A DNA stretch of 56,388 bases, filler included, from Circinaria calcarea (taxonomy: Eukaryota), in NCBI GenBank assembly GCA_051942165.1. It is 4 parts of 4 records of this genome, joined end to end, with 100 filler letters (N's around TTAATTAATTAA, not from the genome) between each part and the next. Parts side by side here need not be neighbours in the genome. Positions count along the whole stretch, not along the records: positions 1 to 14,051 come from JAVECS010000459.1; 3 more parts are not named here. The stretch is one strand, 5' to 3'. Positions 1-42,399 of the stretch are shown here, piece by piece (the first letter of the stretch is position 1; each line of letters begins with the position of its first letter). The notes beneath the pieces are model-generated. The model was not told where the DNA came from, did no database searches, and was given only the letters and a program-made list of their open reading frames with translations. The position numbers were made by a program, and so were the translations under genes.

Positions 1-99
1 CTTCTTCCTCTGTAATGATTAGTTCTCGCATACACTGCGTATAGCCATCGTATTGCTCGTGCCTCACATTACCACATACCTTAGCTTTAGATACTTTAC

Positions 100-390
100 A
101 AGTAAAGTATTCTACGGCCTTACAAATAACAAAAAAAACTACTTTTTTTATAAAATTTCAAAATCCATAATTATTACAGATATAAAATTCTGAGATTTGA
201 TATAAAAAAACTATATATATTTATCTAAAATCTGAAGGGATTTAAATAAATTTATATATAGAAACGAAGTAGTAATTTATAATATAAAAATAAATCTATT
301 ATGCGACTGACTTCTATTAAGCGACTGACGAGCACTAACTTGTTAGTGCTTTTGAAAAAATTATTTCGCGAAATAATTTTTTCAAAATTT
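100..390. repeat. AT-rich, TpA-rich low-complexity segment at the contig end, possibly a RIP-degraded repeat remnant
   Basis: Abrupt AT enrichment with many TA dinucleotides (e.g. ctatatatatttatctaaaa, tttaaataaatttatatatag) compared with the flanking DNA. No recognisable coding remnant. Confidence 0.4.
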
Positions 391-545
391 ACCCTTGGGC
401 ACGATTATGGGAATGGGCCTTTATCATACGGGTTATTCAGTATCACTACTTCAGCTGAACCGCATAAGCTCCCATCATTGCTTCATTGGGTCAATTCATC
501 ATTGCGCAGAAGAATTCCCATTTAGCTAGCTACGCTACCCTACTT

Positions 546-2002
546 CTACACGTGCACCGCTTGCGATAAAACCGCCGTCCGGAATGTGATTCCCTTGGTC
601 CGCTCGATGACCTGCTGATAGACGGACTGGGGAGGATGGTTCATCACGACCGTACCGTCCCGGTAGTCGATTTTGGCGTCGACGCGGGTGTCGCGGATGA
701 GATTGACGATCCATTTCTCGCCTTCGTCTTGGTTGAGGCCGAGGCGGGTGGAGAGGTCTCTGGGAAGGCTGGGTTAGCTACTTTGCTTGGAGAGTTCAAG
801 GTCGGGGGAAAGATGGGGATGGCAATGAGAGAGAGTGAGGGAGAGAAATGGGCTTACTTGATGTCAATGCGTTGGTGAATCTTGCAATAGCTTTCCGAAA
901 TCAAATGTCTTGCAGCCTCTACGAATGCCTCTGCTGCTGCCACTAGGAAGAAATCCCCTCTTAGCACCTCCTCCGCCTCGCTCAGCTTCTTCTGAGCCTC
1001 TTCGAAGTCGAAATCAATATATAATGCCTTGATGAAATCTGTAATTGGATCATTGTACTCGTAGCCCTCTTGCCTTACTATCCGGACCAGATCCTTCAAC
1101 TGTTTTTGATATTGACCTGTATTCCGGCTGCGGCTGCGGTTCGTGATGACTGCGGCGGCAAGGTAGCGTAAGATCCAGGGGCAGGCGGTTTGAATGGTAT
1201 TGATGAAGGCGGGGGAGAAGAACAGTTCGCAGATGGTATCACGGGCTGGTTCGTAGTTGAAAAAGGGAAAGAGTGTCCAGTGGATGAGCCAGGTTCGATG
1301 TTGGAGTTGCGCGAGCGGGTTATTGAAGAGCTTTGTATCTATTGATTCCTTCACCTTGTTGATTTCGTCCATGACCACCTCCCAGTTTGTGGTTAGGATG
1401 TCCGAGGCCAACTTGCCCCATGACGCGGAGGTAGCTTTGTCGTTGTCGGTGGAGAGGATTCGGAATTGGTCGAGCAGGTGAGCGGCATCAGCGTATTTAC
1501 CGCATTGGTACTGGAAACGGCCGTAATCGTAGAGCATGTCCACCATTTCAATCGTGACGCCGTGTGACTGTTCGAGGAACTTCAGGTTGGCAACTTTGTC
1601 GCTGCGCAGGTTCGTGACCACGCTTTCGTCGTTCAGGAGCTCGTCTATCTGGCTCGTCTCTTCCGAGAAGAGTTGTAACCTCTGCAGGACCTCCTCTCGC
1701 TTCTTGACGAATTCCTCGGGTATCTCGTCGCTATCGTTGATCTCTTGCCAGAGGTTTGCGACATAGTCGGTCATGTTGGTCTGCTTGAGAAGCTCATATT
1801 TCATCTTGGTAATATTGGTGGCATCGTCGCCTTCCTGGCCGGAGAGAAATTCGAGTAGAGGGTAGATCAGGTGTCGATCGAGGTTGGGGATAAGTTTGGG
1901 TAGGAGATCATATTGCTCTGTGATATCTGTAGGGGTTTGCTGTGCTTGTGCCATGTTGCCGTTCAGCATCGCCCCAGCTGAGGTGGGTGTATTGTCCGCC
2001 AT
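546..2002 (-). CDS. INT6: Eukaryotic translation initiation factor 3 subunit E
   Basis: Exons 2002-858 and 759-546 with a GT..AG intron. Motifs [62 protein letters not shown] (PCI domain). Confidence 0.96.
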
Positions 2003-2826
2003 GGTTGCAGGGTGAGTTAATAAAGGTAGAGGTTGTTGAAGTCTGAACGGGCTCAGATATTGGAGTTCGCGAAATGTGTGCCAAGAAGATTGAAATGTTG
2101 AAACGGCTTACGAGCTAACAGTAATACGGAATATATCAACACCCTATCTATTCTACTGCTCTGTACTTGAATGCCTCAATTTACTATTGACACACCTCTA
2201 CCGTACTCTAAATAGTTCCTCCGCTTATTCCAACTTCTCATCCTACCGACTATACGAAATCTGTAACCCTCTGAACTGTCGTGCTAGCATCCCGAACAGT
2301 GCATTCCTTAACTACAACATTCGAGATCTCAAGAAGGACCGGTACTTTGCAGGAGGCGGAAGCAGGGAGAGATAGGGACGTAGCCCAGTGAATCACCGTT
2401 CAAGAAAATCTGGGTCTCGGATGTTTGACTAGGAGATTACGTTGGATGAGACGGGAAGAGTTCAATGGGGCTACTTACGAAACGGGATGCGGGCTGAAAT
2501 GTTGAGTGGAATTGCAGCGCTGGAAATGTCTGACGGAGAGATACTATTCCCTTGGAATAGAATGTGTTAAACCAGTACTATTCGAGAGCAAAGGGGTATC
2601 TCGGATGTCTTGTGTGCTTGCAAAGCTACAAGTAACTACCTTGGTCATAAAATGAGTGTATAAGAGACGATTTCGTCTCGGCGAAAAGCAACCATTCAAT
2701 CCTTGCTGATCGTTCAATCATCGTCCCCCAAACTCAGTTCAAGTAGTAGCCTCGTCCATCCCAACTAAATACCCTCAAGCTAACAATTCTGGCCAAGTCC
2801 CAGCCACTTTAGAGGCCAGCGTGCTG

Positions 2827-3862
2827 CTAATCTTTCAGAAAAGCCTGCTTGAAGTCGTTCGAAGGCCAGCTACTGGGGACCTCCAAAATATTCTTGTCCT
2901 GGGCTCTGCAGCAGGTCCAGCATTCCTGAACAAATATATCAGTCTTTCGTCATATGAACAATAACGCCATATTGCTATTTAACTTACACCAAACTGCCTC
3001 GGGTACTATGGAGTCTGCATTAGTAAAGAATCTCGATTTGAGAGTTACAGTCTTACCCAGGGCTTCTTGCATGTCGGCTTGTCTTCATAGCATATCAACA
3101 GGCAAACTTCACCATCGTCATCTTCCAATTTATGTGCGAGGTTTTTCTTCTCTTCGATGATATTGATTGCATGGGTTGGGCCACTTGACACAAAAAGCAC
3201 TGAAGAAGAATCCCGATGTGTACAGCAGGTCCAGCATTCCTGAATAGATATATTAGCTTTTTCTCATACGAGCAGTTACGAAGTACTAGCATCAACTTAC
3301 ACCGAATTTCTTTGGGTACTATAGAGTCTTCGTTAGTAAAATTTCCAACTTGAGAGATATATTCTTACCGATGGACTCATGCAATCCGGCTCTTCATCCA
3401 TGCATATCCTTAGGCAAGCTTCGCCATCATCCGCTTTATGCACGAGGCTTTTGTTCTCCTCAGGAACACTGACTGCGTGGCTTGGGCTATTTGGTCCAGA
3501 AAGCGTCGGGACGGTAGTACGTTGTCTCGTGCAGCAGGTCCAACATTCCTAAATGGATGTGTTAGCTTTTTTTAGTATACGAACGGTCACACGATATTAG
3601 TGTTGACATACACCGAACTTCTTTGCATACTAGGAAGTTCATATTAGTAAGATCCTCGACTGGAAGAACATATCCTGACCGAGGGTCTCATGCATGCCGG
3701 CTTCTCTAGATAGCATATTGCTAGGCAGATTTCACGATTACCATCTATTTTGTGTGCGAGATCACCTTTCCCTTCGCTTGGTCTCACTGAAACTGTATAC
3801 GAAAGGGGAGAAGCCGTGGCCAAGGTGGCAAGGGTGGCCGCTCCGATCATTGTAAGCTTCAT
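2827..3862 (-). CDS. Secreted cysteine-rich protein (232 aa) with three tandem C-x3-C-x6-C-x11-C-x2-CC modules
   Basis: Exons 3862-3680, 3629-3612, 3548-3369, 3318-3301, 3239-3057, 3005-2988, 2925-2827. All introns are GT..AG and phase 0, with CTAAY/CTGAT branch sites. Signal peptide MKLTMIGAATLATLATA. The spliced frame is open to TAG at 2829-2827. Confidence 0.88.
2905..3760. repeat. Three diverged tandem copies (~310 bp period) of an exon-intron-microexon-intron unit
   Basis: cagcaggtcca(g/a)cattcct recurs at ~2909, ~3223 and ~3532. Intron sequences are also visibly homologous between copies. Confidence 0.9.
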
Positions 3863-6402
3863 CTTGCACTTCGGATATAGTGGCACAGGCCTGTGCTGGG
3901 AAATATTATTTTTGCTATGGGTGTAAGTCGAAACGTCCGAACGGTCGAGCCAGGTTTGGACAGACAGGATGGATTTGATTTATACATCTAGACTCGAGGG
4001 AGCAACTTAGATTCGGAGTGAACCAAATCGATCGGGACACTGCATGTGTGCAAACTATTGGTGTGCAGAAAATTCTCCGCTCCATGCACCTTGTACGTAA
4101 ACTGCCGCCCCTTTGTATCCAGTCAGAGCCTTGAAGCAATCATTGCAGATCATTCATAGGCTACAAGACCTCCGTATTCATGCAGACGGTGCGGGCACGC
4201 GGTTCATCTGCATCTGGAAAATAAGACACGACATGGTACCGAGAGGTAAACCTGGCTGATCGCAGATGATTGGGGCTTTATAACAGTAGGAAATCATTTC
4301 GGAAATGAGTGCCATGTAGAGCTACTGCAACGGAAGTAACTAACTACTAAAGGTGGAAATAGCATGGAAAGATTAATACACAAAAGGTAAGAAATGAAAC
4401 CGGTCTGCAGGATGTAAGCCTAAAGGCAAAAGGACATGCCAATAAATACGGATCGAGATTGACCGAGTTTAGTCATTCGTAATTGCCATTGAGGCGCTGA
4501 CGAAATGTGGTCTCGACCCAGCTACCTAAGCCAAACATGGCGGCCCGTTTTGCAGATTGGATGGCATTACCTTACCTTAGTCCAGCTTGAAGCTTACGCC
4601 CAGCCGTCATTTTTCTCACGAGGTATACGGGTTAAGATTTCATGTCTGGGTCGGGGGAGATCCTGTGATGGAACTGCAAACACTCCCTCGTGCAATTGGC
4701 TTTTCGTGAAGGAGACGAAAAATGGTGAAAAGGTGAAACGTTGGCTCTACTCCATTGGAGCTCTATGGATGCCAATGAATAGTCGGCGTTCCATGGCACC
4801 AGCAGTTCTGAGAGCGTCCTCTCTGTTGACTTGGAGTGCGCGTACGGAGTAGGTACGAAGTACATGTGAATCTTTCGCCTTGATGCGGTAACTCGGAAGC
4901 ACGACCAGTTCGCCAATCTCGATCAGCCGAAGCCCCCCCAACGGGTAGCGCGGAATTAGAATTACTACCGTACGGCTTACATGCACCTTTACCTTTGTAG
5001 GAGGCACTTCAGCAACGAGTCGATTTGGTACCTATACTCCGTACGGCCCAGCCAAGCCATTGCAGGAGTTTCCCATGCATCTCCACACGAGCCTGCAATG
5101 GAGCTTATGCCGGGTCTCGAGGGGGCATAGCTTAACCGTTGCTATCTTAGCTGGCTTGGGGTCTTGGAGCCCTGTATGTGACCATATACACGACTTGTCA
5201 TCATCCCTCTTCAAGGTGCTAAGGGGACGGGGTTTGCGCAGTCTCGAACTAATGATCCAGGCCACGGATGTGAATTGAAACGCCGCCTCGAGTATTAGGC
5301 AGTCGCTCTTCGAAAACATCTCTATAGACGCCAAGTTGGTCCTTCTAATCGTAGTCTTCGGATTGGTCCCCATAGAGATGATCGAAATACTTCCCAGCGA
5401 ATACCTCCTAATATACTACTCAATAATTGACACGGAGTGTCCGTTTTTATTGATTGACGATCGGTCGATCGCGTCAGTCTGACTGAGTCGGTTGCAGCTC
5501 AATGATGCTCAGATGGTAAGCGGACGATGGTTCAAAACTGCCCCGATCTGTTGGGAAGTGCCAATTCAAGTCACCCATGCCAATTCCCTCGCCATATCTC
5601 CCCTACTAGCCGTTATTCGTTCTTTTGTTTCCCTTTTAAGGTCTTAGTCTAATATGTTCTCAAGGAGGAATACTCGCATAGCCATTATATTCTTTTCCAC
5701 TGTAGATCTCGATCTATCTCTTCTCGTGTACGCTTTCATCTGCATATAGGTGGGCTAAGAAAGAGTTCCGATGTAAGGGTGGCTAGGGCGTCCATTGGAA
5801 CCCGTTCTATGATAGGGTAGAAATACAACAAAAAGGCAAGATGCTGTACATACTTTCTGGCACTCCGGCATGCGAGGCCGTGCGGGGAGACTTGGCATCC
5901 CAGACTGACCCTCGTATTTATGCACACCCAAGGGATTTAATATAATCTGAATAGGTAACACTTGGTAGAAGCACCAGCTGGAGGGGTAATATAGAGATAT
6001 TGTCTGTTCCCAGGCTTGATCCTCACTAATCACGCTGGGCATCACATCTTTGTCGACCAGGGTCGTCGAGAGGGTGTAACAATCTTTGGCCGAGAGGAGC
6101 CCAGACATGGCGGGCGTATTACTTATGCACTCACTTTGAAGCTGGACATGGGCGGCGGTGCGTTGAGGAGTCGATGATTGATCTTACTCCGCAACACCGG
6201 TGACCAGATGAGATGCATCACCGATGTGGATTTCCTGCTTATGGGAGGGCTTGCGAGTGAGCTCGGGCCACACTTTTTTCCTTGCCGAGATTTCGCGGCT
6301 AGCGGAATGGCGCTAAGGATAATAGCCGGTGGAAGAAACATCGATACGAACTTATAGCTAGTCGGTACAGAAATCGCAAAATTCTTCAATTCTCAGTAGA
6401 CA

Positions 6403-6965
6403 ATGGCACCCCCATTTCTACTATCTTTCCTGTACCCTCGTCATCCTCCGCGACTGTCTTTGATCCGAAGCTGTCTCCGTACCATATCCACCACTCGCCC
6501 TTTACGGCAAGAAGGTATAGATAGCTAGCTGCCCCCATTCAGCGGACCTTACCTCGTAAAAAAAGAAATAGCAAATCCTGACATCGTATTTTCAGCGTCA
6601 GCCATCACCGCGCCTCCCCAACCCCAAGGCCCCTCACAGGTAACCTCCTCCGTCCTCCCCACCTACCACGTCAACCGTACACCCTCCCAGCAACTCCCCG
6701 TCTACCACCTCGCCAAGCGCGGCGGGAACCTCAAGCAAACGCGGATCCGGAAGATCAGCGGGGATGTCGCGAGTCTGCGGCAAGATCTCCAGCAGGCGCT
6801 GGGCTTGAGGGAAGAGCATATCGTGATTAACCAGTTGACCAAACATATCATTATCAAGGTAAGAAGTAATGGAGCGGAGCTTTCCTTCCTTGGCTTATGA
6901 TTGGGATGATCTAGGGTTGGAAGAAAACGGAGGTAGCCAAGTTTTTGCAGGAGAAACGGTTCTAG
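6403..6965 (+). CDS. IMG2: Mitochondrial large ribosomal subunit protein mL49 (Img2)
   Basis: Three exons. Arg-rich presequence MAPPFLLSFLYPRHPPRLSLIRSCLRTISTTRPLR, then YHVNRTPSQQLPVYHLAKRGGNLKQTRIRKISGD...HIIIK/GWKKTEVAKFLQEKRF*. Not in the ORF track. Confidence 0.9.
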
Positions 6966-7522
6966 AGGGGCCACATAGGATCCACGAATTGTTGCGGGAA
7001 TACCCCCAGGAGGTTGAGATGGTACGGGGCTATCTACAATCGACACCAAGAGGGCCGTCATACGGGGGTGCCGCTTAGCCTCGATTTCCTGGACCGCTTG
7101 GCGCAAATCTAAAGGATGGCCAAAGCTGACATTTGAGTATCGCGGGAAGCCGATATACCAAGATACAAACTTACTGGCCTTTATAAGTGAGCTTGTCGGC
7201 GCCGAATACTTGGCTTCCGTTATCAGAGGGGGTTGCCTCCTAGCATGATATCGGGAAAGCACGGATGGTTGGGTGGAACCGCTTTGGTACTATATTGAGG
7301 CTTCGTCTCTAAAAGAAAATTTGGACAGAAGCCATTGGAATGGGTGAAGGCTTGATCAGTCCGGCTCTTATTCTGTGTAAAAAAATCTAGGTAGCGTCCC
7401 CGAAAGGCTAACATGGTTACCGCTGTTGCTTCATAAACAGGCCGTACTTTGCTATACTCACATCCAAAACGCGCCTCGCTATGCCATGCGGATTTAAAAG
7501 TCACTCATTTGCAGCTGTTTGT

Positions 7523-9860
7523 TCAAGTCTCGAGGACAACTCCTCCTAGTCCCATCCGCATGTTTTCCACCGTCTTGGCCCCTACTCCCTTCAGCCGTCC
7601 CAGCTGTCCAAGGCTGCCAATCACTCTCTCTCCCTTCTCCTCCTCCTCATCATTCTCACCTGTACACAATGCCTCTATGATGACTTCTGCCTTCTTCGCT
7701 CCGACGCCTTTGAGTAATCGGATCTGCTTGATGTCCCTCGTATTAATGATGCCTAGGAGGTGCTTCGTCCGAGGCGTATGGACGATATCTGGTTCCGAAT
7801 GGGATCGTGCGATGGTTAACCTCGTCCTCGAACGTGGTCGATGGATTTCTTGGGCTTTTGGCCGATAGCGGAAGCCATCATGAGAACCGTCTTCCAATTC
7901 ATCTGATGAGATCCTAGAGTCCTTAAACTCAGCCTCGGCTTCGGGGTCGTCACAGACTTTTACTTCCAACCCTCGTCTGAGGACTTCGCTGGGTAGCCTC
8001 GTCAAAGATGGTGGCTGTATATCTGGACTTTCTTGCTTCTGTCGTGTCGATTCCTTCTTCTGCCTGAGCTGCTGTCGTAGCTTCAGAATCTTATTTTCAA
8101 GCTTTGCATTGTCTGGGAAATGCTCCTTGGCAAGTTCATACATCTTCAAGGCACTCGTTGCCTCTCCTCTTACATAATGTTGCTTGGCCATCAAGAGGAA
8201 GGTTAATCCTTCGGCTCTGCTGTCACCATTACCTTCGATCTTCTGCTCCAGCGATTCTAGTCTCTGCTGTACTTCTTCGCTGAGAACAGAGACGGCTGCT
8301 TCCGATGGTTGGTCTAAGGCACGAGACGCAAGGATCTCGCTGACTTTCCTCTCAATGATTTCTTCGATGGTGGCTTTGGACATGGTAGGTTGTGCTCTCC
8401 GTATCGGAGAAGGGCTTGGACGAGCAATCTTAGAGGGCCGTGATGCTGCGGATGTGAAAGTTTCAGAAGGCCGCTTTAACGGCGAGGAGCGGAGATGAGT
8501 CTCAAGTTTGCGTGTTTGGTAGGATGTGTTGGAATGTCGAGGTTTTGACATATCAGAATAGACCGAGAAAGCTTTCAAAGGCTTATCGCCCGTCTTCGAC
8601 TGGTGAGTGGTGGTATTGATAGCGGCATTATGTACGGCGCTTGCCAGTGGTCTCAATGGCTGGCGCTGCATCGAGCACACATTGGAAGATGGCAGTGTTT
8701 TGGAGTAGGTGTCGAGGTTTGGCTCATTTTCGAAGACTTTAATTTCAATCTTTTTGGTTCTATTTGCGAAGTTCAAGGAACTGAGGGTGTCAAGATGGTA
8801 AGATCTAACTGGTGCAAGATTCAGAATCATGATTGTAAGTCCGTTATTCTGACCAAGGGATAGGATTCTCGTCATCTTTGACTCGCGGTAAGGAATCCGG
8901 CTCTGCTTCTTACTGATGGCTTCGACACACTGAGCAAGTACGAACAAACTTTTGTTGATACTGGCGGACTCCACCAGTCTTTCCTTGCCATTACCAGCCC
9001 TCCGGTTATCTTCGGAACCGGCAAGATCAATTGCAGATGCCATACTGACCCTTGTTTCTTCTGCTGTAGAGACGGCAACCTTGACACATAAGATTGCATG
9101 CGATCTAGACGAGTGTGCATTAAGCTACAGTATTTGGTTAGTGTGCGCCTGGACTGACTCCGAGGTATGTCATACCTTCGTCGCACTGGTTGAGCGATTG
9201 ACGTTCGCCTCACTGTATAGCTTCTCGAACTCTTTCAGGCTCTCACATGGCCTCTCGGTCAATCCAACTACCACGGTCTTTCCGCCATTGTCACGCAACT
9301 GCAATCCCGTCATTGTCCTCTTATCCGGAGCCTCAAACAAATCAAAGACCTTGTCATTATATATCTCGTAGTAACTCATAGTAACGTTCACGGTAGTCTC
9401 GTTCTTGGCGTCCTTCTCTATCTTCCTGCTTCTCCTGTAGATGCCGCTGAGTAACCGAGGAATAACACCACGTTCTGCCAACGTCTTACCGCCTCGCATT
9501 GTGTGAGTCTTGCCGGTACCAGTGACCCCGTAAGCGAACAGCGTAATATCGAAGCCATTGAAGAGGTGTTTAACGGTAGGTGACACTGTAGCCGTGATCA
9601 ATCCTACCAATCAACATGTCTCCCAAGCGCAATAACTACCTACCTTCGTTGTCAAAAATATCCTGCTGCGTCGCCTCGGGCCCATAAACACTGTTGAATT
9701 GGAAGTTGAAGTTCTCGTTATCGTTCTTTGGATTGGGAACGCGCACAACAGTCGGTTGACTCGACGGTTCACTCCCTGCACTGACTGCGGTGACTATAAC
9801 ATCCTTATTGAGCTCCGATTGCAAGAGTGGCCGCACGCGCGCCACAACACGTACAGACAT
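7523..9860 (-). CDS. Kinesin motor protein with C-terminal helix-hairpin-helix motifs (kinesin-10/KIF22-like)
   Basis: Exons 9860-9644, 9585-9176, 9124-7523. MSVRVVARVRP, P-loop AYGVTGTGKTHTM, switch motifs NAHSSRSH and DLAGSE, RIPYRESKMTRIL. C-terminal LKGVGAKKA / LKGVGAKTV HhH repeats. Confidence 0.92.
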
Positions 9861-10371
9861 GGTGTCTTTAGCAGTATTCTACAAAACTCAGGTCTCCGCA
9901 AAAAGTAGTTCAGCACATCATGAATTGACGGCGAACATGGGTCGTGAGCTTGGCACTCTCTGGGGAGGAGGTCGGCTCGTTTGTTGTCTCGGTGCAACTT
10001 CGGCTGTTGTCGGGAGAACAGCTGGGATTTTAACCGTCGAGTGCTGCCCTACTCCAAATAACACACCTATATCTTTGTATTAAGTCGCAACTATTTAAGG
10101 AGAGCAGTTGTACTTGGTATAGGCCGAATTGGAGTTGATGTAATAGGTCATAAACAGATACTGCCGCCAAAGCTGTGCATGAGTAGGTTGCTATACTACT
10201 CTGTAGTCACCGATATCACGTCATCCTCTTGGTAATTCAAGCCAGCGTCAGGAGCTCTTTAATACCTTGAAAATGGTAGTTTGAATGCGTTGAGAAATAA
10301 GAAAGATCTTAATCTAAGGATGCATATGTAGGATTGGCAGTTTTGCACCTCGCCGACCAACGTTATCCCAC

Positions 10372-11463
10372 TCATTCATCCGCCATCGGATCAGCTGGCG
10401 GCTCATCAAATTCCACTACCGGCCTGTCCGTAGGCCTTGGGAAATATCCTTTCGAAAAGGAAGGAGCAACGATTCTATGATCCGAGGCGTATTGAAGTAC
10501 GGCGTCAAAATCCCTGCACTGGTGTTGCACGTTGAAATTTGGGTGAGGAGCAAAATGACCTTTGATCCAGTTATAGGTGATGATGTTCGTATCGGCATCA
10601 CATATTAGCTTCTGGCGGAGGATATCTGTGCAGTGGTCTGTAGGATTCGTCAGTGAGCTTGAACCCCAGATAGCCAGTACTTTTGGTCGGAATTTACCAA
10701 TGTGTTTATGCCATGCTTCAGGATGCTCCCTAGAGTAGCTAGATGATGCGGTATAGTAATCTGGATAAGTTACCTCCCAGAGACTTTGCTACAATCTAAC
10801 TGTTAGCTAGGTTGAAACTTTCCGGGATTCTGTGTGAAGTTACCCACCAGGCAATGGATCTGGTGAATGGTTTCGAATAAAGCCAAACGACCGCCACCCA
10901 ATTCAAGGGGCACCTTCACCGCATGCTTCGACGTATTCAGTTGCTGGAGAACCTCTTCTGTGATGCTCATAGCACCGACTATTAAATCCATGTTAGCACT
11001 GTTTAAACTCCAAAAGCAGATCTCCATACGATGTGTTAAGCTATTCCAAGCCTTATCAACTGTAGGTGAAGGCGGCCCCTTAAAATTTGAGGACTGATCA
11101 AAAGTCCCGTTGAACCTCACGTTTCTGTAGGTATCGGGAACTGAGCCCATAATCAGGGCTAGACATGGCAAGTAGTTAGCGTGCTTAGCAGTACCTACGA
11201 TCTTATATATAACTTTACTCACACCATTTTGTATGCTGTGTTAAGCAGTCTTGCGGGATCGATTTCTTGAGAATAAAGGTAGATATCAGCATTGCCCCAG
11301 AGATCGAGAATAATACAACGTGTATTATCCAGGGTATTGCTTTTCTGAACAAGTTCGATGCCACTTGATGCTGATTTTGTAGGTCCCCCGTATGTCCTAG
11401 TAGAGATTCTTCTCCATCTTCTGTGTTCTTCAAACATGCCGTCGAGAACGCTTCATATTCCAT
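10372..11463 (-). CDS. DUF3328 / UstYa-family oxidase (285 aa), single N-terminal TM helix
   Basis: Exons 11463-11223, 11158-11030, 10978-10848, 10788-10698, 10637-10372. TM segment WIIHVVLFSISGAMLI, F-x-GPPSPTVDKAW, two HxxHC motifs (HQIHC, HIDHC), then ILRQKLMCDADT and PNFNVQHQCRDFD. Confidence 0.92.
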
Positions 11464-12372
11464 AATGCAGAACTTATCTATACAGTCAGATCTTAAACAC
11501 GGTTCGGGCCGGGTATGGTCAATAAATGAACTTCTATGCCGGGCGCATCAAGCTGGGAAAGCGGTCGGATAGGCGACGGCCGTATCTTCCTGTTCCTATC
11601 ATGCAACGAAGAAAGATATTCTGACGCCAACTCTTTCATGTCTGATAGGAATCTAAAACCCACCCATGCCACACTGACCATCCTAAATGGATGGAATATC
11701 TTGGCTAGAACGGTGAGCAAGCTGAGTGGGGTGGAAGATCTGGAATCATTTCCGATGCCTGGTCCATGGTGGTTGCATATAGACTTTGGTATCCATGATA
11801 GACGGTCTAACAATCCCTGCTACATCCTTTTCTGTTGATCTTTCCCGGAAACAGAGGCTCTGCATGACGCGCAACACTGTATTTGGGTAAGGCAAGAGGG
11901 ACGAAGAAGGCAAGATGGGCATCAAACGGTCTCGGTGCAAAGGATTTGCATTCTTTCATGTAAGAGTATGTGAGAGGGAGGCACAGAATCATGGAGTACC
12001 AGTCAGAATAGAATCAAAGAACCGGACGAGGCCTTGAAAAGGGAGTCAAAAGCGAGACATGACAAGACACAGGCATTAAGATGCAAAAACCACAAGCTAT
12101 CTCGACAGAATGGGAACAGCAGCCTAACGGGACTAGCAGGCCCTTAAGCTGTTATTGTGGGCACGGCTACGCTAATGCAGGCAACCCATTGTTAGTCCTA
12201 TCTCTCTTGCATTGCCAAGTGGCTTTGACGAGTGATTCTCCTGTTACCGATTTTACTTGAAAAGCAAACGGAACCTGCTTGTTTTCAACTCTTTCATTGA
12301 CCGTGATCCTTCTCTGCAAAGACATACCTTTTCCAATCCCAGTACTCGATTTCTAGTCCGCGAGCCACTAAG

Positions 12373-12647
12373 ATGCGGCTCGCCATCCTCTTCCTCGAGC
12401 TTGTCGCGGTACTGCCCCTTGTCTTGGGAGCTCCGATAGCACCTAAAAGTACCGGCTTATTGCTTGCAGCACGAATGAAGCTTATATTTGTATAGGTTCG
12501 GACTCTATCAACAGCATGATCTTTTACTACAATCAGGATCTAATCGAGCGTGGCAAGGAGGCATCGGAGGGACTCGCTAAACGTGTGGATATCGACAGCA
12601 TGGTCCTCCGCTACGACGAAGAGGTGATTGAACCAGGCAAGGAGTAG
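12373..12647 (+). CDS. Putative RiPP precursor / Kex2-processed repeat peptide (75 aa)
   Basis: Exons 12373-12448 and 12496-12647 with a 47-nt GT..AG intron. MRLAILFLELVAVLPLVLG-APIAPKSSD-SINSMIFYYNQDLIERGKE-ASEGLAKR-V-DIDSMVLRYDEEVIEPGKE*. Signal peptide, KR site and 84-nt internal repeat. Divergent from the DUF3328 gene. Confidence 0.75.
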
Positions 12648-13551
12648 TTGGAGGGACTCAGTACACGCGTGGAGACCGAAAGCATCATCTCCATTTGATG
12701 TGCTAGAAGGGCTCAAAGATGGTAGACAGAGCACAATCTGGAGCGGTATCAAGTCATGATGTTTTTCCCGAGTTTCAACGGAACGTAACGAACTAACGTG
12801 GGGCAAGAAGTCGACGGGGTTCTGTTAGATGGCTTTGGTCCGTTAGTTCAGAATAAACCAAAAAAAGATGCGTTAGGATGCCTTCAACTGCGCTGTGCCT
12901 CCTCTATGCATGTAGTTGACTATTGAATGGAAATCGATTGTGATGGTCTGCGAATGCGGGAAGTAAGCACTCTGTAGCGTTGTGGCTCTCCTAATTGGCT
13001 TTAGCCTGGGAGTGAACGGCGCATCCCCGCATATGACTTGCATTAGATCAAGGCACATTTTGGCCTCGCAATGGCAACGGGGAAGATCACGAACTCGAAT
13101 GTGGCAGGTGTCACCACGCGGATACTACGTTACGCGGGAATGGTTCTGATTGTGGTTACCGATGATGCGGATACACCAGACTTTTTGCCAGATCCGAGTT
13201 TCATCCACACGATTTCGGGTGGGCCTGGGCGACCCATAACAAAATGTCTCCTTATTTGTGGGGAAGGGGGGAAAAATCGACCACGGTTGACATCATCGAT
13301 AAAGCAAAGTTGCTCGCGATCAGATATCTCTGTGCCTAGGCTTACTTACGATACTGTACCGAGTGCCAGCATCAGATATCTCTGCCTCGGGTGTCAATCC
13401 CAGCTTTCTTTCCAAATGTAATCGGCTACGTTTGAAAGTAAAAATCCGAGCTAGATATATTCCACTTTCTCCGAAAAGCTCTCAAGCAGTTTGGTAGAGA
13501 AGACTAGAGTCTTGCTGTTTGAAGATATACCAAGAGTTTGAGATTTTGATA

Positions 13552-14051
13552 ATGGATCCAGAAGGCGAGAAAACCTCACGACTTTCTCAGGTCAACAATT
13601 CTCACGATGCAGCAACGATCGAGAAGGGTGTAACAGCTGAAGCGTGCAGTACGGCAGAAAACGAGGTTACCACGCCAGCTGTATTCGACTCAGTACCCGT
13701 CAGGAAACTCCCCTTAATATCAAACAGTCCTCAACGCGTGAAAGTTATCCAACTGCTTGGAGCTCTAGCTGCTATCGGGGCCGGAACAGCGAGGCCGCTG
13801 ATGACTCTTGTTTTTGGAGGATTAGTCAACAAATTCAACAGCTCTGGTGATCCTGTTGCGCTGAAAAACCTTATCGATCACGAAGTCCTGTTCCTTGTAT
13901 ATCTCTTTGTCGGTCAATGGGTTCTCGTTTGCAGCTATGGCATTTTCTTCTCCATCTCCGCCATGCGCTTTTCAACCAAACTTAGAGCCGCCTATCTACG
14001 TGCTGCAATATCACAGGACTTCAGGGACATAAGCCAAGGCGAAGTGGCCAA
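13552..14051 (+). CDS. ABC transporter, ABCB/MDR type (5' part only, cut by contig end)
   Basis: First TM-domain pattern GALAAIGAGTARPLMTLVFGGLVNKF...LFLVYLFVGQWVL...KLRAAYLRAAISQD. Confidence 0.85.
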
Positions 14052-14151
14052 NNNNNNNNNNNNNNNNNNNNNNNNNNNNNNNNNNNNNNNNNNNNTTAAT
14101 TAATTAANNNNNNNNNNNNNNNNNNNNNNNNNNNNNNNNNNNNNNNNNNNN
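14052..14151. other. Artificial contig-joining linker (N44-TTAATTAATTAA-N44)
   Basis: Palindromic six-frame stop spacer inside Ns. Genes on both sides are truncated. Confidence 0.97.
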
Positions 14152-28193: not shown

Positions 28194-28293
28194 NNNNNNN
28201 NNNNNNNNNNNNNNNNNNNNNNNNNNNNNNNNNNNNNTTAATTAATTAANNNNNNNNNNNNNNNNNNNNNNNNNNNNNNNNNNNNNNNNNNNN
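28194..28293. other. Artificial contig-joining linker
   Basis: Identical N44-TTAATTAATTAA-N44. Confidence 0.97.
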
Positions 28294-28586: not shown

Positions 28587-31500
28587 TCAGGGGCTCTGCT
28601 TCGTAATGCGTGCTCCCCTATCCAACAATGCCGTTAATGCCGGATCCTCTGGGTGTGGAGGCCGATCTTTGGCGACGAACATGGTATTCGTGATCAAAGC
28701 GTTTTGAAAATATCGACTGGCCTTCTTTTCCCGAAGTTGACGTCTCTTCTGGTAGCTTTGGTAAGTATGCTCGTCCAAGGTAGCGTAAAGGTATTTTGGA
28801 TGGACCCCTATCAATTGCGCGCCTTTTTGCCCAAAGCCAAAAGACGTAAGGGAAAAGGCTTTGATGCCGTTTGTCTGGATGCTGGTGCTTGGAAAGACGA
28901 CATGTTCAAACTGGTTAAGAGACACGTCTATGTTATCGGCATTCATATTCCCAGGTACCAGCCCACTACTGAGCATCTGCATGCACCCATTGAGCATCCA
29001 TGCACCGGCAGCACCTTTGGGATGGCCGGTCAGGTATTTCTGAGTAACCCCCAAGATCATGTTTCCTTTTTTTCGGCCAAGGCTCTTCAACTGCTGCTGC
29101 ACTGCTTCCACTTCATTCTTATCCCCTATGATCGTTGAAGTCCCGTGGAAGGAAGTGACGCTGACATCGTCAATAGTGAGGCCCCAGGTTGCTAAGGCCC
29201 CTCGCAAAGGTGAGATTCGATTGTCATTGGCCCAGAAATGGTTCCCGAAGCTGTTCATTGCTTCTTTCTCCTGCCGTTGAGCTTCCTGGTTTATATGGTG
29301 GATGTGTTCCTTCATGTAAGTAGGGACGTCGAACATCACATCTGTTGTTTTCATATTCTCAGCTTCCTCATACATCCACGCCAACTGCAAGGCCCAAATA
29401 TCATTGATCTGCATTCGTCGCAATTCGAATTGCCTTCTGCGGTAATTAATGTCTAGGAGCGGTGACGGAAATGCGGTTGATGTCTCTGCGGCGCATCCTA
29501 CAATTCCTTTCCCAGGAGCAGGTATCGAACGGCCAAGTTTGTCGCTTGCGGTCCCAGTAAATGCAATAATTGCATAAATTGGCAGACCCATCTCTAAAGC
29601 AAGTTCTGCTGTTGTGATGACTTGGAGACCGCATCCATGAGCCTCTACAAAGCCATTCCTTGAAGAGGTCATGGGTCTCGACATCTCCTTTGGAGTCCGG
29701 CCGCGATCGAATTCATCCCTTACGTTAACGGTGGCCTTCATATTTGCAAATTCAGAGGCTACTGCTTCTGACAAATCGTCAACCCCTCCTACCAGACACA
29801 TTTTGGCCTTTCCGCTCATGATCAATTCGCATCCGCTGTCCAGCGATTCGATAGAGGTAGCACAGGCTCCTACGGGTGTCTTGATAGGGCCGCTGGAAGA
29901 AAGAAGTAACATGTTGATCCATGCGCCGACGGTATTGATGAACGTCTCCTGGAGAATATCGTTCTGGACTGGCCTGCCCAAATATCGGCCCTTGAACATC
30001 TCTGCCAAGGAATCCATGCCACCTATACCAGAGCCAATACAGTTGCCAACTTCTGAGGTGTGAATGTATTGGTAAAATTCATAGAAGTCGGTGATGCCTG
30101 CAGAAAGTAGCGCTTCAACAGTACAAACAAGAGTGTAAAGCGTGATCGGGTCTACTTGCGAGACGATATCATCCGAAATCCCATATGTTCGTGCGGTCCA
30201 TCCGGTTGGAATCTGGCCCGCAACCACGTTCCCGTACTGCACAGCTTTAGGAATCATCAGAATAGCCCCTTTCTTGATTCGTACAATCCACTCGCCAGAC
30301 GCCGGGTCCTCGAAGATCTCAGCCAAGTGCCCATGCTTCCTCTGAAACTCTTCAGCTGTTTCCTTCGATGCGCTGAATGGCTCAAGATCCTCTTGAATAG
30401 CAACCTCCTGGAGTATATCTGTTTGGTGAGGGTCATTACCGTCCCAGAATTCAGGTTCGATAATCCGGATACCGGAATGCTCTAAAATGTACTTCTCGTA
30501 CCTTTTCTTAACATCCTTATCATCGACTGTTTCGCCGGTCTTTGTGTCAACCCAGCCAGAATACTGCTTTCCATTGATTGTTCCACTATGGTATTTGATG
30601 AGACCCATGATCCAAGACATTTCCATGCAGCCTTCAATGGAGAATTTGGAATGGGCTTCCATTTCCCATCTCGTGCGGGAATTACCGTATGGTCCTAACT
30701 CCGAGAATCCCGTAATAACAACGACGTGCTCAAGATCGATCATTCCTTTCAGTTGGGAAGCCAGGGGCCCAGCTTCTGCGTTATAGTCTGGTAGGGCCGG
30801 GAAATTTATCAACATATTGGCGCGAGGCTCAAGAACCACTGCTTGTGCTATCGAAGGAGCATGGTCGTTCTTAATATGGCTATTCTCTATGCATGTCTCT
30901 TCCGCAACTACCCTGCGGATGTTGCCAACCTCATTAACATTCCGTCGTATCTCGTCCACTGTGCGGGAGAGATTGGAGATGGAATCGAGTCCACCACTCA
31001 AATCTGCAATCAATGGCTCGTCTTGACAAAGGTTGATCATGGATGGCGTAGCAAGCCCAATGATGTTAAAGGCCATCTCTTTCTGTGAGAATGTTCGGAC
31101 CCCAAGATTTTCAATGCCTTCGGCGACCATGTCGTTGCTAGCCATTAAGCCTGTCCCACGAGTCCACCCAATAGCTGCACCGCAGATGGACAGGTAGTTG
31201 CCCCATTGTTCAGAATGCCATTTGTTGAACAGGCTTTCAAGTCCCATTTTAGACTCGGAATAAAGGCCATCGTTTCCGAAGATACCGTGGTTGGCTGACA
31301 AAGGTAAGATAACCTGAGCTGGACGTGTTTGATACCCGCGTATCTGCTTTTGCTCCTTTATGGCGCCGAGAAGACGTATTGTATTCGTTAACATGATGCG
31401 ATGTGCCAGCTCGCTCTTTGAGTCTATGCGGTCTATAGCACGGTCTGTTTCAGAAACAGCGGCGAATGGGATTACGATGTCGAGATCCCAGCCCAGCCCC

Positions 31501-33714
31501 TTTTTGGAGTCGTAGATATATTCAATCAGTGCTTTGATATCCTGCTGGCTTCCCTGGTTGAAGGGCAACAGTATCATTTGAGAGCCGCGGGCACCGCACT
31601 GAGAGTACAGGTTTTGGAAGTATTGGGTCGTTTCTGCAGAATAGTTACTGGTCGTCACTAGAACCTTGGCTCCTCCACTGATGAGGCACTGAAGAAGTTC
31701 AGATCCGATAGAACCACTTCCCGCTCCGGTTAAAAGAACATTTTTCTCATGGAAAGACACCCCTATGTTCTTTATTCGGTTCAAAGACTCCAGGTATGCG
31801 TCCGACATACGCTCCTCCCGTTCCCATCCAAAGGCTCCCCTTTTCTTCACATGTAGTAACGGAACGCTCCAGGGTTGCTTGTAGTATGGTATTCCGAAAT
31901 CTGCAGCTCCTTCATCAATAAATTGCTCCGGTTTTTTCACGGGCGACCTTGGAACCTCGATTGTTTCTATCTTGCCGTGTGCTCCGACAATGGTCCGAGG
32001 AGCACTGGAATTCCAAGCGCTTTGGAAAACTGGCAGTCTCGCTAAACCATCCTCACATCTGCAGAGGAGGTGCTCGATGGTCTTTTTAGCGGTTGCATAA
32101 CTACTTCCTTGCTCCACCCGACACCGACTTATAAGATATCTCATACAGTCGAGAAGCTTTGGACTCGAAGCGTTGACGATGTGGAGAAATTGTCGTTCGA
32201 AATCCCAATCAGTGCTTTGCAAGGTCCCAAGGAGAATACCATAGAACATTTTGAAAAGATCTTGTAGGGCCCAGTTCCAAAAGGAGTCGTATATGCGAAC
32301 ATTCAAAGGTTTAAGAATCGGTTTAATCCCGGAAGCATAAAACTCTCCGTGTTCGAGGTTCCAAAGATCGAGTTGTACCTGCAAGTTTTCCTGCGTCTTA
32401 CGTGAAGAATTCAGTGCTTTGTCGGCTGCTCTGAGATTGATATTAAGAGACCTAGCATAGAGCTCTAATTTCCTCCGGGAGAGATCTTTCTGATGTTCGC
32501 TCACGCAGTTTAAGGATGCAGAATCCAGCAGGACTTGCCCAGCAAGCTCTACTGCGGGTTGCTCATGGGATATACCTGCACCTGTTAGGTGTTTTTGGGC
32601 AATGCTGTCTAAGAAAGCTCTTGCATCTTTTTCAGTGGCGAGGCGAGTGTTAGGCTGCGCCATGATTGCAGATAAAAGGACTGCGTCCTGTCGGCCCTCC
32701 TTAAGGCCCCAATGGCCTTTCAGATAGCTTCTCGCCGCAGAAACGCCGAAACCTCCTGGCATTTTCGTCGACATCAATCGCGCCACCAGTGTTGAGGTTT
32801 GTTTGCCGAGGCGCCCAGTGAATGATGGTTTAATCCAATCACTAAGCTCATCCAGGCCGCATTCTTCAGGCCTCTCAGGTAAACTCCCGAATTCGTTGAT
32901 TAAATCCCCGGAAAGTTCATTCTCTAAGGTTGACCTGCCTAATGGTATGTCAGTGTCAAGGACGAGACCTTCTGTCTTGCCAAAGATACTGGACGAGCAT
33001 ACATACCTGCGGCAAGTATCTTGATCGTATTACTCAAGGAGAGTTTGTCGGTAGATTTCTTCAGCTTTTCTGCAACTATCGTCCGTACAATATCACTGAC
33101 TTGCGGGTTACTATCAGCTACCAATGCTACTGTTCTATTGCTTGATGATACTGCCTGCCCAATTGCTGCTGCAGAATAACCTGCTGGGCCACTAATCGGC
33201 GAGGGCGGAGTCTCCAATATGGTCCGAGAAGTAGGATCCTGCTCATCTTCCACCTGTTCTGCATGATAATAGAGTTCGTTCTTATGCTTTTGGCAGCAAA
33301 GAAGCTGCCTCTGGATTGATAACGCAGTGTCGCGGGTTTGATGTATATTATTGATGGTATGCTCAGCCATCCGGATCAAAGTATCCGAGGGGCCTATTTC
33401 AACAAGCCGCTCAACTTTCTTGTGTACTAGTAGTACATTCTGCGTTTCGATCCTGAGGACTATGTTAGCCAAGGCCTTGTAATGAATGCACTCAAGAAAC
33501 GCGACAGCCCCTTTCCGAGAACACTCGTCTACACTTCAAAACTAATCACAGCAACCTGAGGGCTCTGGAAACCTACCATTTCACCGGGAAGCAAAACTGA
33601 TGTCTGGTGTTTGCGCATTAGCATTTTGGTCAAGGGAAACCGGTAAAGGTGTGCTCACGATAACAATTCTATAAGAAGCACGTAAGTGAGCTCCTGCTCA
33701 ACCTCCGGAGTCAT
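28587..33714 (-). CDS. Fatty acid synthase alpha subunit (ACP-KR-KS, ~1626 aa), secondary-metabolism type, no C-terminal PPT domain
   Basis: Exons 33714-33659, 33603-33577, 33452-33007, 32938-28587. MTPEVEQEL..HQFCFPVKWIETQ, ACP GRSTLENE, KR LLTGAGSGSIG and YSESKMGL, KS TPVGACATS, FHGTST, GHPKGAAG. Stops right after the KS domain. Confidence 0.93.
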
Positions 33715-34682
33715 CTTGATCTCCTTGTCTTGTCGTAGATCAAGTAGCTTAATTGACGGGGCAGTTTCGACGAAAGGTCAATCAGAGAAAGGTGAGCCAT
33801 GATATGGGAGAGTGACAACGTAGATGGCGGAGCTGAGCCTAACAGGACGAACAGGAGGTGCTCCATGTCGTCTCTAAAGATAGGTACATAGAATTTACTA
33901 AAGCCGGCATCTCGAGTTTGTTGGACTTACGGGAGCAGCATGTCAAGTCGCGCCATAGATGTGTAGCTGTCTCACTGTGCCGCAAGACCAACCGGAGTTC
34001 GAGCGTGTTGGAGAGCTTCGCCTTCCTTCCAACTGTGAAGATAACCCGGCGCTCCTACACGCTGTTCCAGCTCGCATTTCAAGTAATACAATTCGGTTAG
34101 TTTTCCCAAGTGCTGCAGACCATGTATTGGACTGTTCCCCTGGAGTATAACGTCAGACGTCGCGAGGCAGTGAGTCGTCAAAAGACTCGCTACATGAAAC
34201 GAAAAAGTCCTGCAAGCACATTCTCCTTAGGCTTTGGCCACTGCACTTCCACGCTATTAACCAATCCGTGAACAGTTTACTTCGGGATACTGAAAGTTCA
34301 TTGACGCAACTATGCAAACTGTTGTCGATATCTATCGGTTTCTACCGGCCGCTGATGCAATACAATAATCAGAATGTTCTTAACAGCTCCCACCTAGCCA
34401 TGGCTTGTATCCCCTTCTCATCATTCGCTTGTCTACCTCCCCGGCCTCTCTTCTTATCTTCTACCCAGAAATGTCGCCCAATGTCCATCGAGTCCCCCTA
34501 TCCTCCATTACCTTTCCTCGGGCGGCGCCACGCCTGTCCACGACTCCGCTCTCATACTGGACACCGGCACTCTCAATTCCACAAAATGAGTGATGACTCT
34601 TGGCGGTTGCTTACTGCTGCTATCTCCGAGTCCTTCGGGTTTAAACCGATGGGCAAGTTTAGACAAAGTAAGGGATCGTAGT

Positions 34683-36006
34683 TCATGTAGTAAATAGGCA
34701 TTGCTGTGTTGAATAGACCAACTTTGACGATGCCCAGACACAGAAAGCGGCAACCCAGCAGTAGCCTACAATACGCCATTTCAGGCCAATTGAATCTTCA
34801 ACCCTGTTTTGTTCTGCAAGTTCGCGAGATTCCAGGATTTCATCGGTAGACGATGGCTGCGTTCGTTTCGAAGTCCGCAACTTCGCCATAGATCCATTTG
34901 ATCGAAGGGCTGTTGTAGTCTTTGCGGAACTCAACGATTTCACCGTGTCACCCTCGAGAGGTCTTGTGCCATTCGAACCTTCCGACTTTTTGGAAGTTGC
35001 TAACATATACAATCTTATTATTTGATCCTCAGCAAAGATTGCTGTAGCGACGCTGAGGTAGTACCGCATCTGTGGCATGACGGAGCATCGGAGGGGCACG
35101 TCCGGAGCTGCCGCGATATGCAAGAGGGCAGAGATCATGAAGGTAGCAATGATTATCAACGGTCGCGAAAATCTGCTACTACGAGGTAATCCGAGTACAT
35201 TATTGAGGATAACGAAAGCGTGTACGGTGAATGCTTTACGCATGAGCGAATGCCAAAAGTTCCTAAAGTATATTAGATACTAAACTCGAGACTGGTGATG
35301 TTGCGCGTAGTTACCCATAGAACCGGCGCATGGTATACGCTTCTTTGATGCCTCCATACAGAGGACGCCATCCCGCGGGAGAATCTCCACATACAACCGC
35401 TAGAAATCCTGCGGTGTTGTGTGCAGCTCGAAGTGTGAGATAGGGTATTGACATGCTAGCGACTGCTAGATATGTTCGTATCGTTATTTCCCGTAGCGTT
35501 ACCGAGGACAGGCGGTGAAGGTAACCGTTGGATACCTCGGTGAAGTCCTCGATGTAGAGTTCGGGTGTATAAGTCTCGAACAGGTATATCAGAGCCGTTG
35601 TCCAGGCGAGATCCCAGAGTTTGTACATAAGGAATGAGGTTTTGGAGGGGGATCTATCTGGATCTCTTTCGTCAAAGGGAGGCAGGTTACTTGCGCGTAC
35701 ACTCCATCGCGGATTGAAAATCTGATTAAACGCCCACTGAAGCCGAGTGCGCGACTCTCCATCAATCGGGGGGGATAGCTTCGCCAGGCATAGCCAGTAA
35801 TTTGTGTGGAGAATGAAGCCGACGAGATATTCTGCGCCGATATAGCCTGGAATCGTGCTAACCACCGTACTCCGAACAGAAATCAAGCAACATATCGCAA
35901 CAAGAGCGACAGCTGCTGGTCTCTGAATCGACGTTGGACTGGTGTAGGCTAGAGCAAGACAACAGACGATCTTTGAGAAGTAGAAAGGAAGAACGGAATC
36001 AATCAT
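34683..36006 (-). CDS. Membrane-bound O-acyltransferase (MBOAT_2 / wax synthase / TRI7-like)
   Basis: Exons 36006-35315 and 35262-34683. WRPLYGGIKEAYTMRRFYG/NFWHSLMRK, FMISALLH, WRIVGYCWV. Several hydrophobic segments. Confidence 0.85.
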
Positions 36007-42299: not shown

Positions 42300-42399
42300 N
42301 NNNNNNNNNNNNNNNNNNNNNNNNNNNNNNNNNNNNNNNNNNNTTAATTAATTAANNNNNNNNNNNNNNNNNNNNNNNNNNNNNNNNNNNNNNNNNNNN
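42300..42399. other. Artificial contig-joining linker
   Basis: Identical N44-TTAATTAATTAA-N44. Confidence 0.97.

Follow-up and report, generated by a model that had tools for sequence, protein, structure and literature searches.

Tandem six-cysteine modules encoded across micro-exons in a lichen fungus: an unnamed fungal family of putative serine-protease inhibitors

The lichen fungus Circinaria calcarea carries, at 3862-2827 on the minus strand of the 56,388-nucleotide stretch of DNA analysed here (the window), a seven-exon gene that sequence analysis confirms as real and that encodes what is probably a secreted chain of three six-cysteine (six-Cys) modules. The same module, by database searches, defines an unnamed and widespread fungal family that spans three phyla and belongs to an already known broad sort of protein, the disulfide-rich secreted mini-proteins. 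The most informative feature of the modules is a residue in their first C-x3-C loop that resembles the P1 residue of a protease inhibitor. Each module may be a canonical, standard-mechanism serine-protease inhibitor, and the whole a putative three-headed chain, a reading to which we give an even chance. The original prediction, made from the DNA alone, described the gene correctly but overlooked the P1-like residue and the wide fungal family, in which the module occurs in one to seven or more copies.

Gene structure

The gene lies on contig C459 and, as read from its spliced translation, is made up of seven exons and six introns, with three micro-exons of exactly 18 nt each. The exons measure 183, 18, 180, 18, 183, 18 and 99 nt, every one divisible by three, and their 699 nt give a frame of 232 aa that is free of internal stops, bearing out the prediction of three tandem 6-Cys modules that each contain an 18-nt micro-exon. 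The six introns are 50-63 nt long, of phase 0 and bounded by GT...AG; each has a CTRAY branch site 17-18 nt from its acceptor, and their GC content is 30-40%, against about 45% in the surrounding kilobases.

All three modules follow the pattern C-x3-C-x6-C-x11-C-W-T-C-C, with an identical Cys spacing of 3, 6, 11, 2 and 0, which had rightly been called invariant. The repeat unit spans intron sequence as well: its copies are spaced 309-314 nt apart and are 60-83% identical with the introns included, in agreement with the claim that the unit was duplicated together with its introns. A basic-hydrophobic N-terminus (crude hydropathy 1.76) makes a signal peptide likely at about codons 1-17; the proposal of a product that would be secreted and rich in disulfides is supported. 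The exon-1 frame (3644-3979) is the only stop-to-stop ORF of at least 100 aa that overlaps the gene, so that the first exon is indeed the only one to appear in an ORF track. The features of the gene are as follows.

3680..3862, minus strand: exon 1, with the start codon, likely signal peptide, pro-region and first half of module 1 (C1-C3), from the spliced translation
3630..3679, minus strand: intron 1, 50 nt, phase 0
3612..3629, minus strand: exon 2, 18-nt micro-exon, predicted first strand of the module-1 hairpin; same peptide in the intron-free orthologue P0001, strand from the model
3549..3611, minus strand: intron 2, 63 nt, phase 0, with the sole indel between both genomic copies
3369..3548, minus strand: exon 3, end of module 1 (ECWTCC), 38-aa linker and first half of module 2
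3319..3368, minus strand: intron 3, 50 nt, phase 0
3301..3318, minus strand: exon 4, 18-nt micro-exon of module 2
3240..3300, minus strand: intron 4, 61 nt, phase 0
3057..3239, minus strand: exon 5, end of module 2, 39-aa linker and first half of module 3
3006..3056, minus strand: intron 5, 51 nt, phase 0
2988..3005, minus strand: exon 6, 18-nt micro-exon of module 3
2926..2987, minus strand: intron 6, 62 nt, phase 0
2827..2925, minus strand: exon 7, end of module 3, 26-aa tail and stop codon
3531..3727, minus strand: module 1, codons 46-73, loop CLAIC, putative P1 Ala (3719-3721), from the Cys positions
3222..3416, minus strand: module 2, codons 112-139, loop CLRIC, putative P1 Arg (3408-3410), from the Cys positions
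2908..3104, minus strand: module 3, codons 179-206, loop CLLIC, putative P1 Leu (3096-3098), from the Cys positions

Evidence for splicing

Three agreeing lines of indirect evidence support splicing as modelled: an orthologue that reads through the junctions, a second genomic copy that keeps the splice sites, and a distant relative with introns at the same positions. The orthologue, P0001 from a Logan assembly, has 218 residues, of which 169 are identical, and all 18 Cys are at matching positions. It reads through every junction of the gene, micro-exon peptides included, and has no introns. Since its longest contig, of 975 nt, falls short of the 994 nt required if these introns were still present, P0001 would most simply be an orthologous transcript from which they had been spliced.

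The second copy of the gene is found on contig C384, within a 7.2-kb block at 93% identity (window 405-7545 against 1945-9144 of L007); the doubling of this region means that the assembly combines two haplotypes or else two strains. In the C384 copy none of the 12 splice dinucleotides and none of the 18 Cys has been lost, and the exons are without indels. With 28 changes in 699 nt of exon and 13 in 336 nt of intron, the exons are no better conserved than the introns, and pN/pS is 0.67, which speaks against strong constraint on the entire protein. Within the modules there are four silent and two replacement changes, and outside them four silent and 18 replacement changes, the lost stop codon among them; by this uneven split, the modules are under constraint and the linkers are not. 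The C384 copy has lost its stop codon, with a read-through of six additional aa, and the copies differ in a second in-frame Met, which is missing in one of them.

The distant relative is a three-module gene at metagenome locus L016, with 32% identity and on an unrelated contig. Its modules 2 and 3 have phase-0 introns at the same two places, flanking micro-exons of 24 and 18 nt. A fifth intron, in module 1, was read by eye and failed the branch-site filter.

Searches of the fungus’s own genome with the 18-nt motif gave six matches and searches at the protein level eight. Every one fell in the gene itself or in its C384 copy, and neither search revealed a further paralogue. A looser 15-nt pattern matched 164 times, against 84 in the control, which is about background level.

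The module family in fungi

When 1.84 billion representatives were searched at E<=0.001 with a profile built from P0001 and P0002, 56 were retrieved; four more came from a second search, making 60 proteins. By regular expression (regex), 54 of these carry 93 modules. One module is present in 32 proteins, two in 13, three in four, four in four and seven in one, with further degenerate copies. The six regex-negative proteins were excluded from all counts: P0021 and P0046 look like false matches, and P0016, P0030, P0045 and P0055 look like divergent members. The family is spread over Ascomycota, Agaricales and Cunninghamella, with named members in Aspergillus, Fusarium, Pleosporales, Phlyctema, Macrolepiota, Crepidotus and Cunninghamella. 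Among 20 looked-up proteins and 11 from the second search, all are labelled hypothetical or uncharacterised except P0017, whose automatic UniRef name, “Kazal-like”, is a weak lead.

A hydrophobic N-terminus was scored, crudely, in 47 of the 54 relatives. In the 68 of the 93 modules that have standard spacing, conservation comprises the six Cys, a Trp after C4 (66/68), a Gly two residues before C4 (55/68) and a Pro two before C3 (49/68). An aromatic residue follows C4 in all 68, and aromatics are also common at positions 6, 16 and 17. The closest repeat lies within the same protein for only eight of 30 repeats, and is often no nearer than the repeats of other proteins. Linkers consist of 60-80% Pro/Ser/Thr in several relatives. 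The L[AV]HK linker motif that had been reported is present in the window protein, but as a family feature it did not stand: it recurs in just one of the 60 retrieved relatives, the orthologue P0001, and is probably a remnant of local duplication.

Module net charge is +2, -2 and +1 in the window, with a family median of 0 and at least +4 in nine of 93; the modules are not cationic, and the suggested likeness to toxins and antimicrobial peptides is an analogy only. A separate release of the modules, also suggested at that time, finds little support, since the window linkers are without KR or RR and have one KK, and KR or RR occurs in five of 48 family linkers.

As had been expected, no named family could be assigned. 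Nothing in Pfam rose above its cut-off for the window protein, P0001, P0002, 24 alignment members or 33 scanned proteins, and PDB sequence searches with the module proteins gave no relevant match. A product of the gene, sought at 108-2000 aa with exact exon words in the query, was not found among 303 candidates in the protein collection, which is consistent with missed or faulty annotation of the gene, as had been foreseen. The family extends across three fungal phyla, nameless and under-annotated owing to its 18-nt micro-exons. In addition, within a module of the database entries P0011, P0023 and P0031 the sequence seems to continue into an intron or to omit the micro-exon, faults that fit frequent mis-annotation of the family.

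No published description of the family was found in the open-access literature, although supplements of secretome papers may list members unnamed. A Xanthoria lichen preprint mentions putative protease inhibitors (cluster 83) in the part available (10.1101/2024.08.16.608140), and the available part of PMC10282164 has no match to terms for the family.

Some members differ in design. P0003, P0024 and P0054 have a module sub-type that ends E-G-C-W-G/T-C, with Thr commoner at the putative P2; P0003 (694 aa) combines both sub-types in one chain. In P0036, a module is followed by short repeats that end in Lys-Arg, a fusion with a Kex2-type repeat precursor.

Predicted structure of the module

Structure prediction by AlphaFold was done on module 1 of the orthologue P0001, which shares 27 of its 28 residues with module 1 of the window. 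The model is confident (pLDDT 94.8) and consists of a short N-terminal strand and a hairpin of residues 21-26 and 29-35, with no helix. Most of the first hairpin strand comes from the micro-exon, the conserved Gly is located in the hairpin turn, and the first C-x3-C segment lies outside regular secondary structure, between the short strand and a bridge. From the model we infer a disulfide pairing of C1-C6, C2-C4 and C3-C5; its secondary-structure string does not itself show the pairing and is compatible with anchoring of the loop through C1-C6 and C2-C4. A model of the full P0001 contains three confident module copies on low-confidence linkers (pTM 0.29), and the protein is thus predicted to resemble beads on a string, with independent beta modules on disordered linkers.

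Foldseek searches of the PDB, which the original prediction had recommended for a single module, gave no match at E<=0.001 among 28 for the module and none among 10 for the three-module model, a weak test at 36 residues. The best VIA-align wide match (Z 2.8, rmsd 2.4, 36 residues aligned) is to an unrelated domain at noise level, and is likewise a weak test with a 36-residue model. Further fold searches reached best Z scores of 2.6 and 2.7, which is noise level for so small a model, and in a viral structure library none of 51 matches counted, again a weak test. No Pin-II, Kazal, pacifastin or AFP chain is among the fold-search matches listed, a weak blank for a 36-residue query. The best ESM Atlas scores, 0.79 and 0.82, are leads only.

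A putative protease inhibitor

As a protease inhibitor, the secreted chain would carry three independent modules of about 28-36 residues on disordered linkers of about 38 aa, each module most likely locked by three disulfides. The first C-x3-C would form an exposed loop with both ends pinned to the beta-hairpin, in a geometry that could let it bind the active site of a protease in a substrate-like manner, with its middle residue as P1. P1 Arg or Lys, Leu and Ala select trypsin-, chymotrypsin- and elastase-type enzymes, respectively, as is also stated for Arg and Leu in an excerpt of PMC8188708. Module 1, with Ala, would be directed at elastase- or subtilisin-type targets, module 2, with Arg, at trypsin-type targets, and module 3, with Leu, at chymotrypsin-type targets, so that one chain might block several protease classes, be they those of grazers, of competing microbes or of the fungus itself. 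Grazing may act as a selective pressure, and an anti-grazer role is conceivable; no report of snails grazing on this lichen was found in the literature.

The middle residue of C-x3-C in the 93 modules is Arg in 34, Ala in 15, Leu in 15, Lys in 12, Pro in four, Glu in four, Met, Gln and Gly in two each, and Asp, His and Thr in one each, so that 76 of 93 have Arg, Lys, Leu or Ala at the putative P1. In the 68 standard modules, this position alternates between basic and aliphatic residues, is acidic in 4%, and is the only one with a large basic share at which Arg outnumbers Lys. The Arg:Lys ratio there is 34:12, against 60:165 elsewhere in the modules, counts that are not independent because the sequences are related. 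More than one P1 class is present in 15 of the 22 multi-module proteins. The order Ala, Arg, Leu is kept in P0001, although its module 2 differs at seven of 28 residues, and the same set is kept in the second genomic copy.

The pattern recalls the Pin-II inhibitors of plants, whose reactive centres are five-residue C-x3-C arrays with the two Cys paired with C6 and C4 (excerpt of PMC3073943). The loop of P0024, CTKEC, is that of a tomato Pin-II reactive centre (same excerpt). In Pin-II, P1 is hypervariable on a conserved Cys scaffold (excerpt of PMC2259423), with Arg dominant, followed by Leu, and P2 is preferably Pro or Thr (excerpt of PMC8188708). Other features count against a Pin-II-like loop: the putative P2 in the 93 modules is Leu in 44, Trp in 20, Thr in seven and Pro in none, and the putative P1' is Ile, Val or Ala rather than Asn. 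The entropy of the P1 column, 2.71 bits, also speaks against the reading, since it is no more variable than many other columns, and P1 was singled out after the sequence had been seen.

A more specific proposal, which we hold tentatively and think somewhat likelier to fail than to stand, is that the modules form an undescribed, fungal-native family of canonical serine-protease inhibitors with a minimal 28-residue, three-disulfide scaffold that has no relative of solved structure, in which a loop of the Pin-II style (C-x-P1-x-C) is mounted on a different beta framework. The likeness to Pin-II might then be due to convergence, or the module might be a reduced relative of the Pin-II ancestor. Lichen fungi, moulds and mushrooms alike would build it into multi-headed arrays through duplication of a unit bounded by introns, and the micro-exons would cause gene callers to miss it.

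If the modules do inhibit proteases, fungi would gain a very small canonical inhibitor family, and it could be tested directly whether lichens and other fungi use proteins to defend themselves against grazers or the proteases of microbes. Inhibition would be simple to test, since one gene provides three natural variants, with Ala, Arg and Leu. The module could be made by chemical synthesis because of its small size, and so could also serve as a scaffold for inhibitor design. If the modules are not inhibitors, they would still form a new fold family, small and rich in disulfides, in need of a function.

Relation to known families

No inhibitor family matched significantly in Pfam or in PDB sequences. 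Pin-II (PF02428), which is MEROPS I20, shares several features with the fungal modules: a secreted precursor with tandem Cys-rich repeats; a C-x3-C array, in all modules by definition, whose middle residue varies but is mostly Arg or Leu, a likeness of sequence pattern only; and a C-x2-C-C motif later in the repeat, a spacing that is also found in the Pin-II repeat. However, Pin-II is a plant family with eight Cys and four disulfides in a repeat of 50 residues, joined by linkers of 5-6 aa and with Pro or Thr at P2, whereas the fungal module has six Cys in about 28 residues (an extra Cys within eight residues after the CC occurs in two of 93), linkers of 38-39 aa in the window protein, and Leu or Trp at P2. 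The window gene has six phase-0 introns, all inside modules and none in the signal region, in contrast to the two-exon Pin-II gene, in which a single phase-1 intron interrupts the signal peptide and the repeats are intron-free (excerpt of PMC2259423). In Pin-II, the H-fragment supplies most of the sheet (same excerpt); since the last two Cys of that fragment are missing from the fungal module, the folds are probably not the same. PF02428 gave no match in the 24 alignment members or in P0001 and P0002; its best score in register, in one of 33 proteins, was 7.3 bits (E 8.5), a weak lead against a cut-off of 22.3 bits. The genome of the lichen fungus itself had no PF02428 match, the controls being unmatched as well. 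With six Cys instead of eight, another intron pattern and no HMM match near the cut-off, membership in Pin-II was rejected.

Kazal inhibitors, which contain an alpha-helix, have a Cys three residues before the scissile bond and then P-x-C. The fungal modules are similar in having a Cys three residues before the putative scissile bond, P-x-C a few residues later and a multi-headed layout, and differ in their Cys spacing and vicinal CC. With no Kazal HMM match in any scanned member and no helix in the model, membership was rejected here too. Pacifastins resemble the family in their six-Cys beta modules of about 35 residues, multi-domain precursors and presence in fungi. They have an invariant C-N-C core and a reactive site between C5 and C6, with a fungal branch (excerpt of PMC13388995); this core is present in none of the 93 modules, in which C5 and C6 are adjacent, and pacifastin membership was rejected as well. 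The failure of these tests lowers the case that the module is a Pin-II, Kazal or pacifastin inhibitor, not that it works like one.

The AFP/BP/NFAP2 proteins and gamma-core defensins are likewise fungal, secreted, small, Cys-stabilised and all-beta, with a formal gamma-core, and AFP/BP/NFAP2 are patchily distributed across Ascomycota and Basidiomycota (excerpt of PMC13525654). The six-Cys module differs from AFP/BP/NFAP2 in being smaller, not basic, and arranged in tandem arrays, and no Pfam match to these families or to defensins was found among the scanned members.

Alternative explanations

The relation to the antimicrobial families raises a different function, that of a defensin-like antimicrobial or antifungal mini-protein whose gamma-core hairpin would act on the membranes or walls of competing microbes, which we regard as unlikely. 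A levomeric-2 gamma-core, defined as C-x3-9-GxC, is formally present in 64 of the 93 modules and in all three of the window, and fungal antifungal proteins are basic (excerpt of PMC13525654), whereas only nine of the 93 modules reach a charge of +4. Plant defensins are weak fold neighbours (1bk8, Z 2.5, rmsd 2.5, 34 aligned; 7jnn, Z 2.4, rmsd 2.5, 35 aligned), as are alpha-defensins at Foldseek E values of 4.5-9.9, but all of these scores are at noise level, and a model without helix, with its conserved Gly in the hairpin turn, argues against a CS-alpha-beta defensin. It is also rather improbable that the module binds a glycan, cell surface or partner protein non-enzymatically, with tandem copies raising avidity, perhaps like multivalent effectors or wall-binding proteins at an algal or substrate interface. 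Copy numbers of one to seven or more, linkers rich in Pro/Ser/Thr, modules predicted to be independent, and the aromatics after C4 and at positions 6, 16 and 17 would suit such a role. However, 32 of the 54 relatives have a single regex module, the scanned proteins contain no carbohydrate-binding Pfam family, none of the 56 profile matches read is fused to a glycan enzyme, and the near-invariant Trp may merely pack on the conserved Pro; the switch between Arg, Leu and Ala is left unexplained.

The remaining readings are far less probable. Binding of Zn, Cu or Cd by C-x3-C and C-x2-C-C as thiolate ligands would make use of the six invariant Cys, and faint matches to the BTK zinc motif (E 0.0002-0.07) occur in three proteins, all below the curated cut-off; it is very unlikely in view of the hydrophobic N-termini of 47 of the 54 relatives, which point to an oxidising secretory route, and of the even number of Cys in a beta module, as would be expected from disulfides. 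Still more doubtful is a RiPP precursor of the dikaritin or KEP class, in whose processing the UstYa oxidase encoded about 6.5 kb away would take part: the precursor would be secreted and has repeated cores, but dikaritin and KEP cores are flanked by KR or RR sites, whereas the repeats in the window have only KK pairs, three of four inside modules; two genes lie between, and the module is predicted to fold alone. Least probable of all is a gene that is decaying or is spliced otherwise than modelled. The equal divergence of exons and introns, the pN/pS ratio and the loss of a stop codon and of an in-frame Met in one copy would fit decay, but the splice dinucleotides and Cys are all kept, the exons have no indel, the silent changes outnumber replacements in the modules, the read-through is short, and an intron-free orthologue exists.

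Genomic surroundings

The neighbours of the gene on its contig, eIF3e, Img2 and kinesin, are housekeeping genes. The eIF3e product is identical to a Circinaria calcarea protein, and its next-best named matches come from lichen-forming and related fungi, which marks the host as a lichen fungus. A UstYa gene (PF11807) is situated on the same contig at 10372-11463 (minus strand), with Img2 and kinesin intervening, and the start of an ABC transporter gene at 13498-14050 (plus strand), at the contig end. Together they may mark the border of a fungal RiPP cluster. Runs of N at 14052-14151, 28194-28293 and 42300-42399 divide the window into parts of four contigs, and only 1-14051 belongs to the contig of the six-Cys gene.

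On a different contig, the alpha subunit of a fatty-acid synthase and, next to it, an MBOAT_2 O-acyltransferase are encoded at 28587-36150 (minus strand), in what looks like a secondary-metabolite FAS cluster. An ORF at 37396-38037 (plus strand), with no Pfam match, contains many short repeats that end in Glu-Arg-Asp and looks like a Kex2-processed repeat protein.
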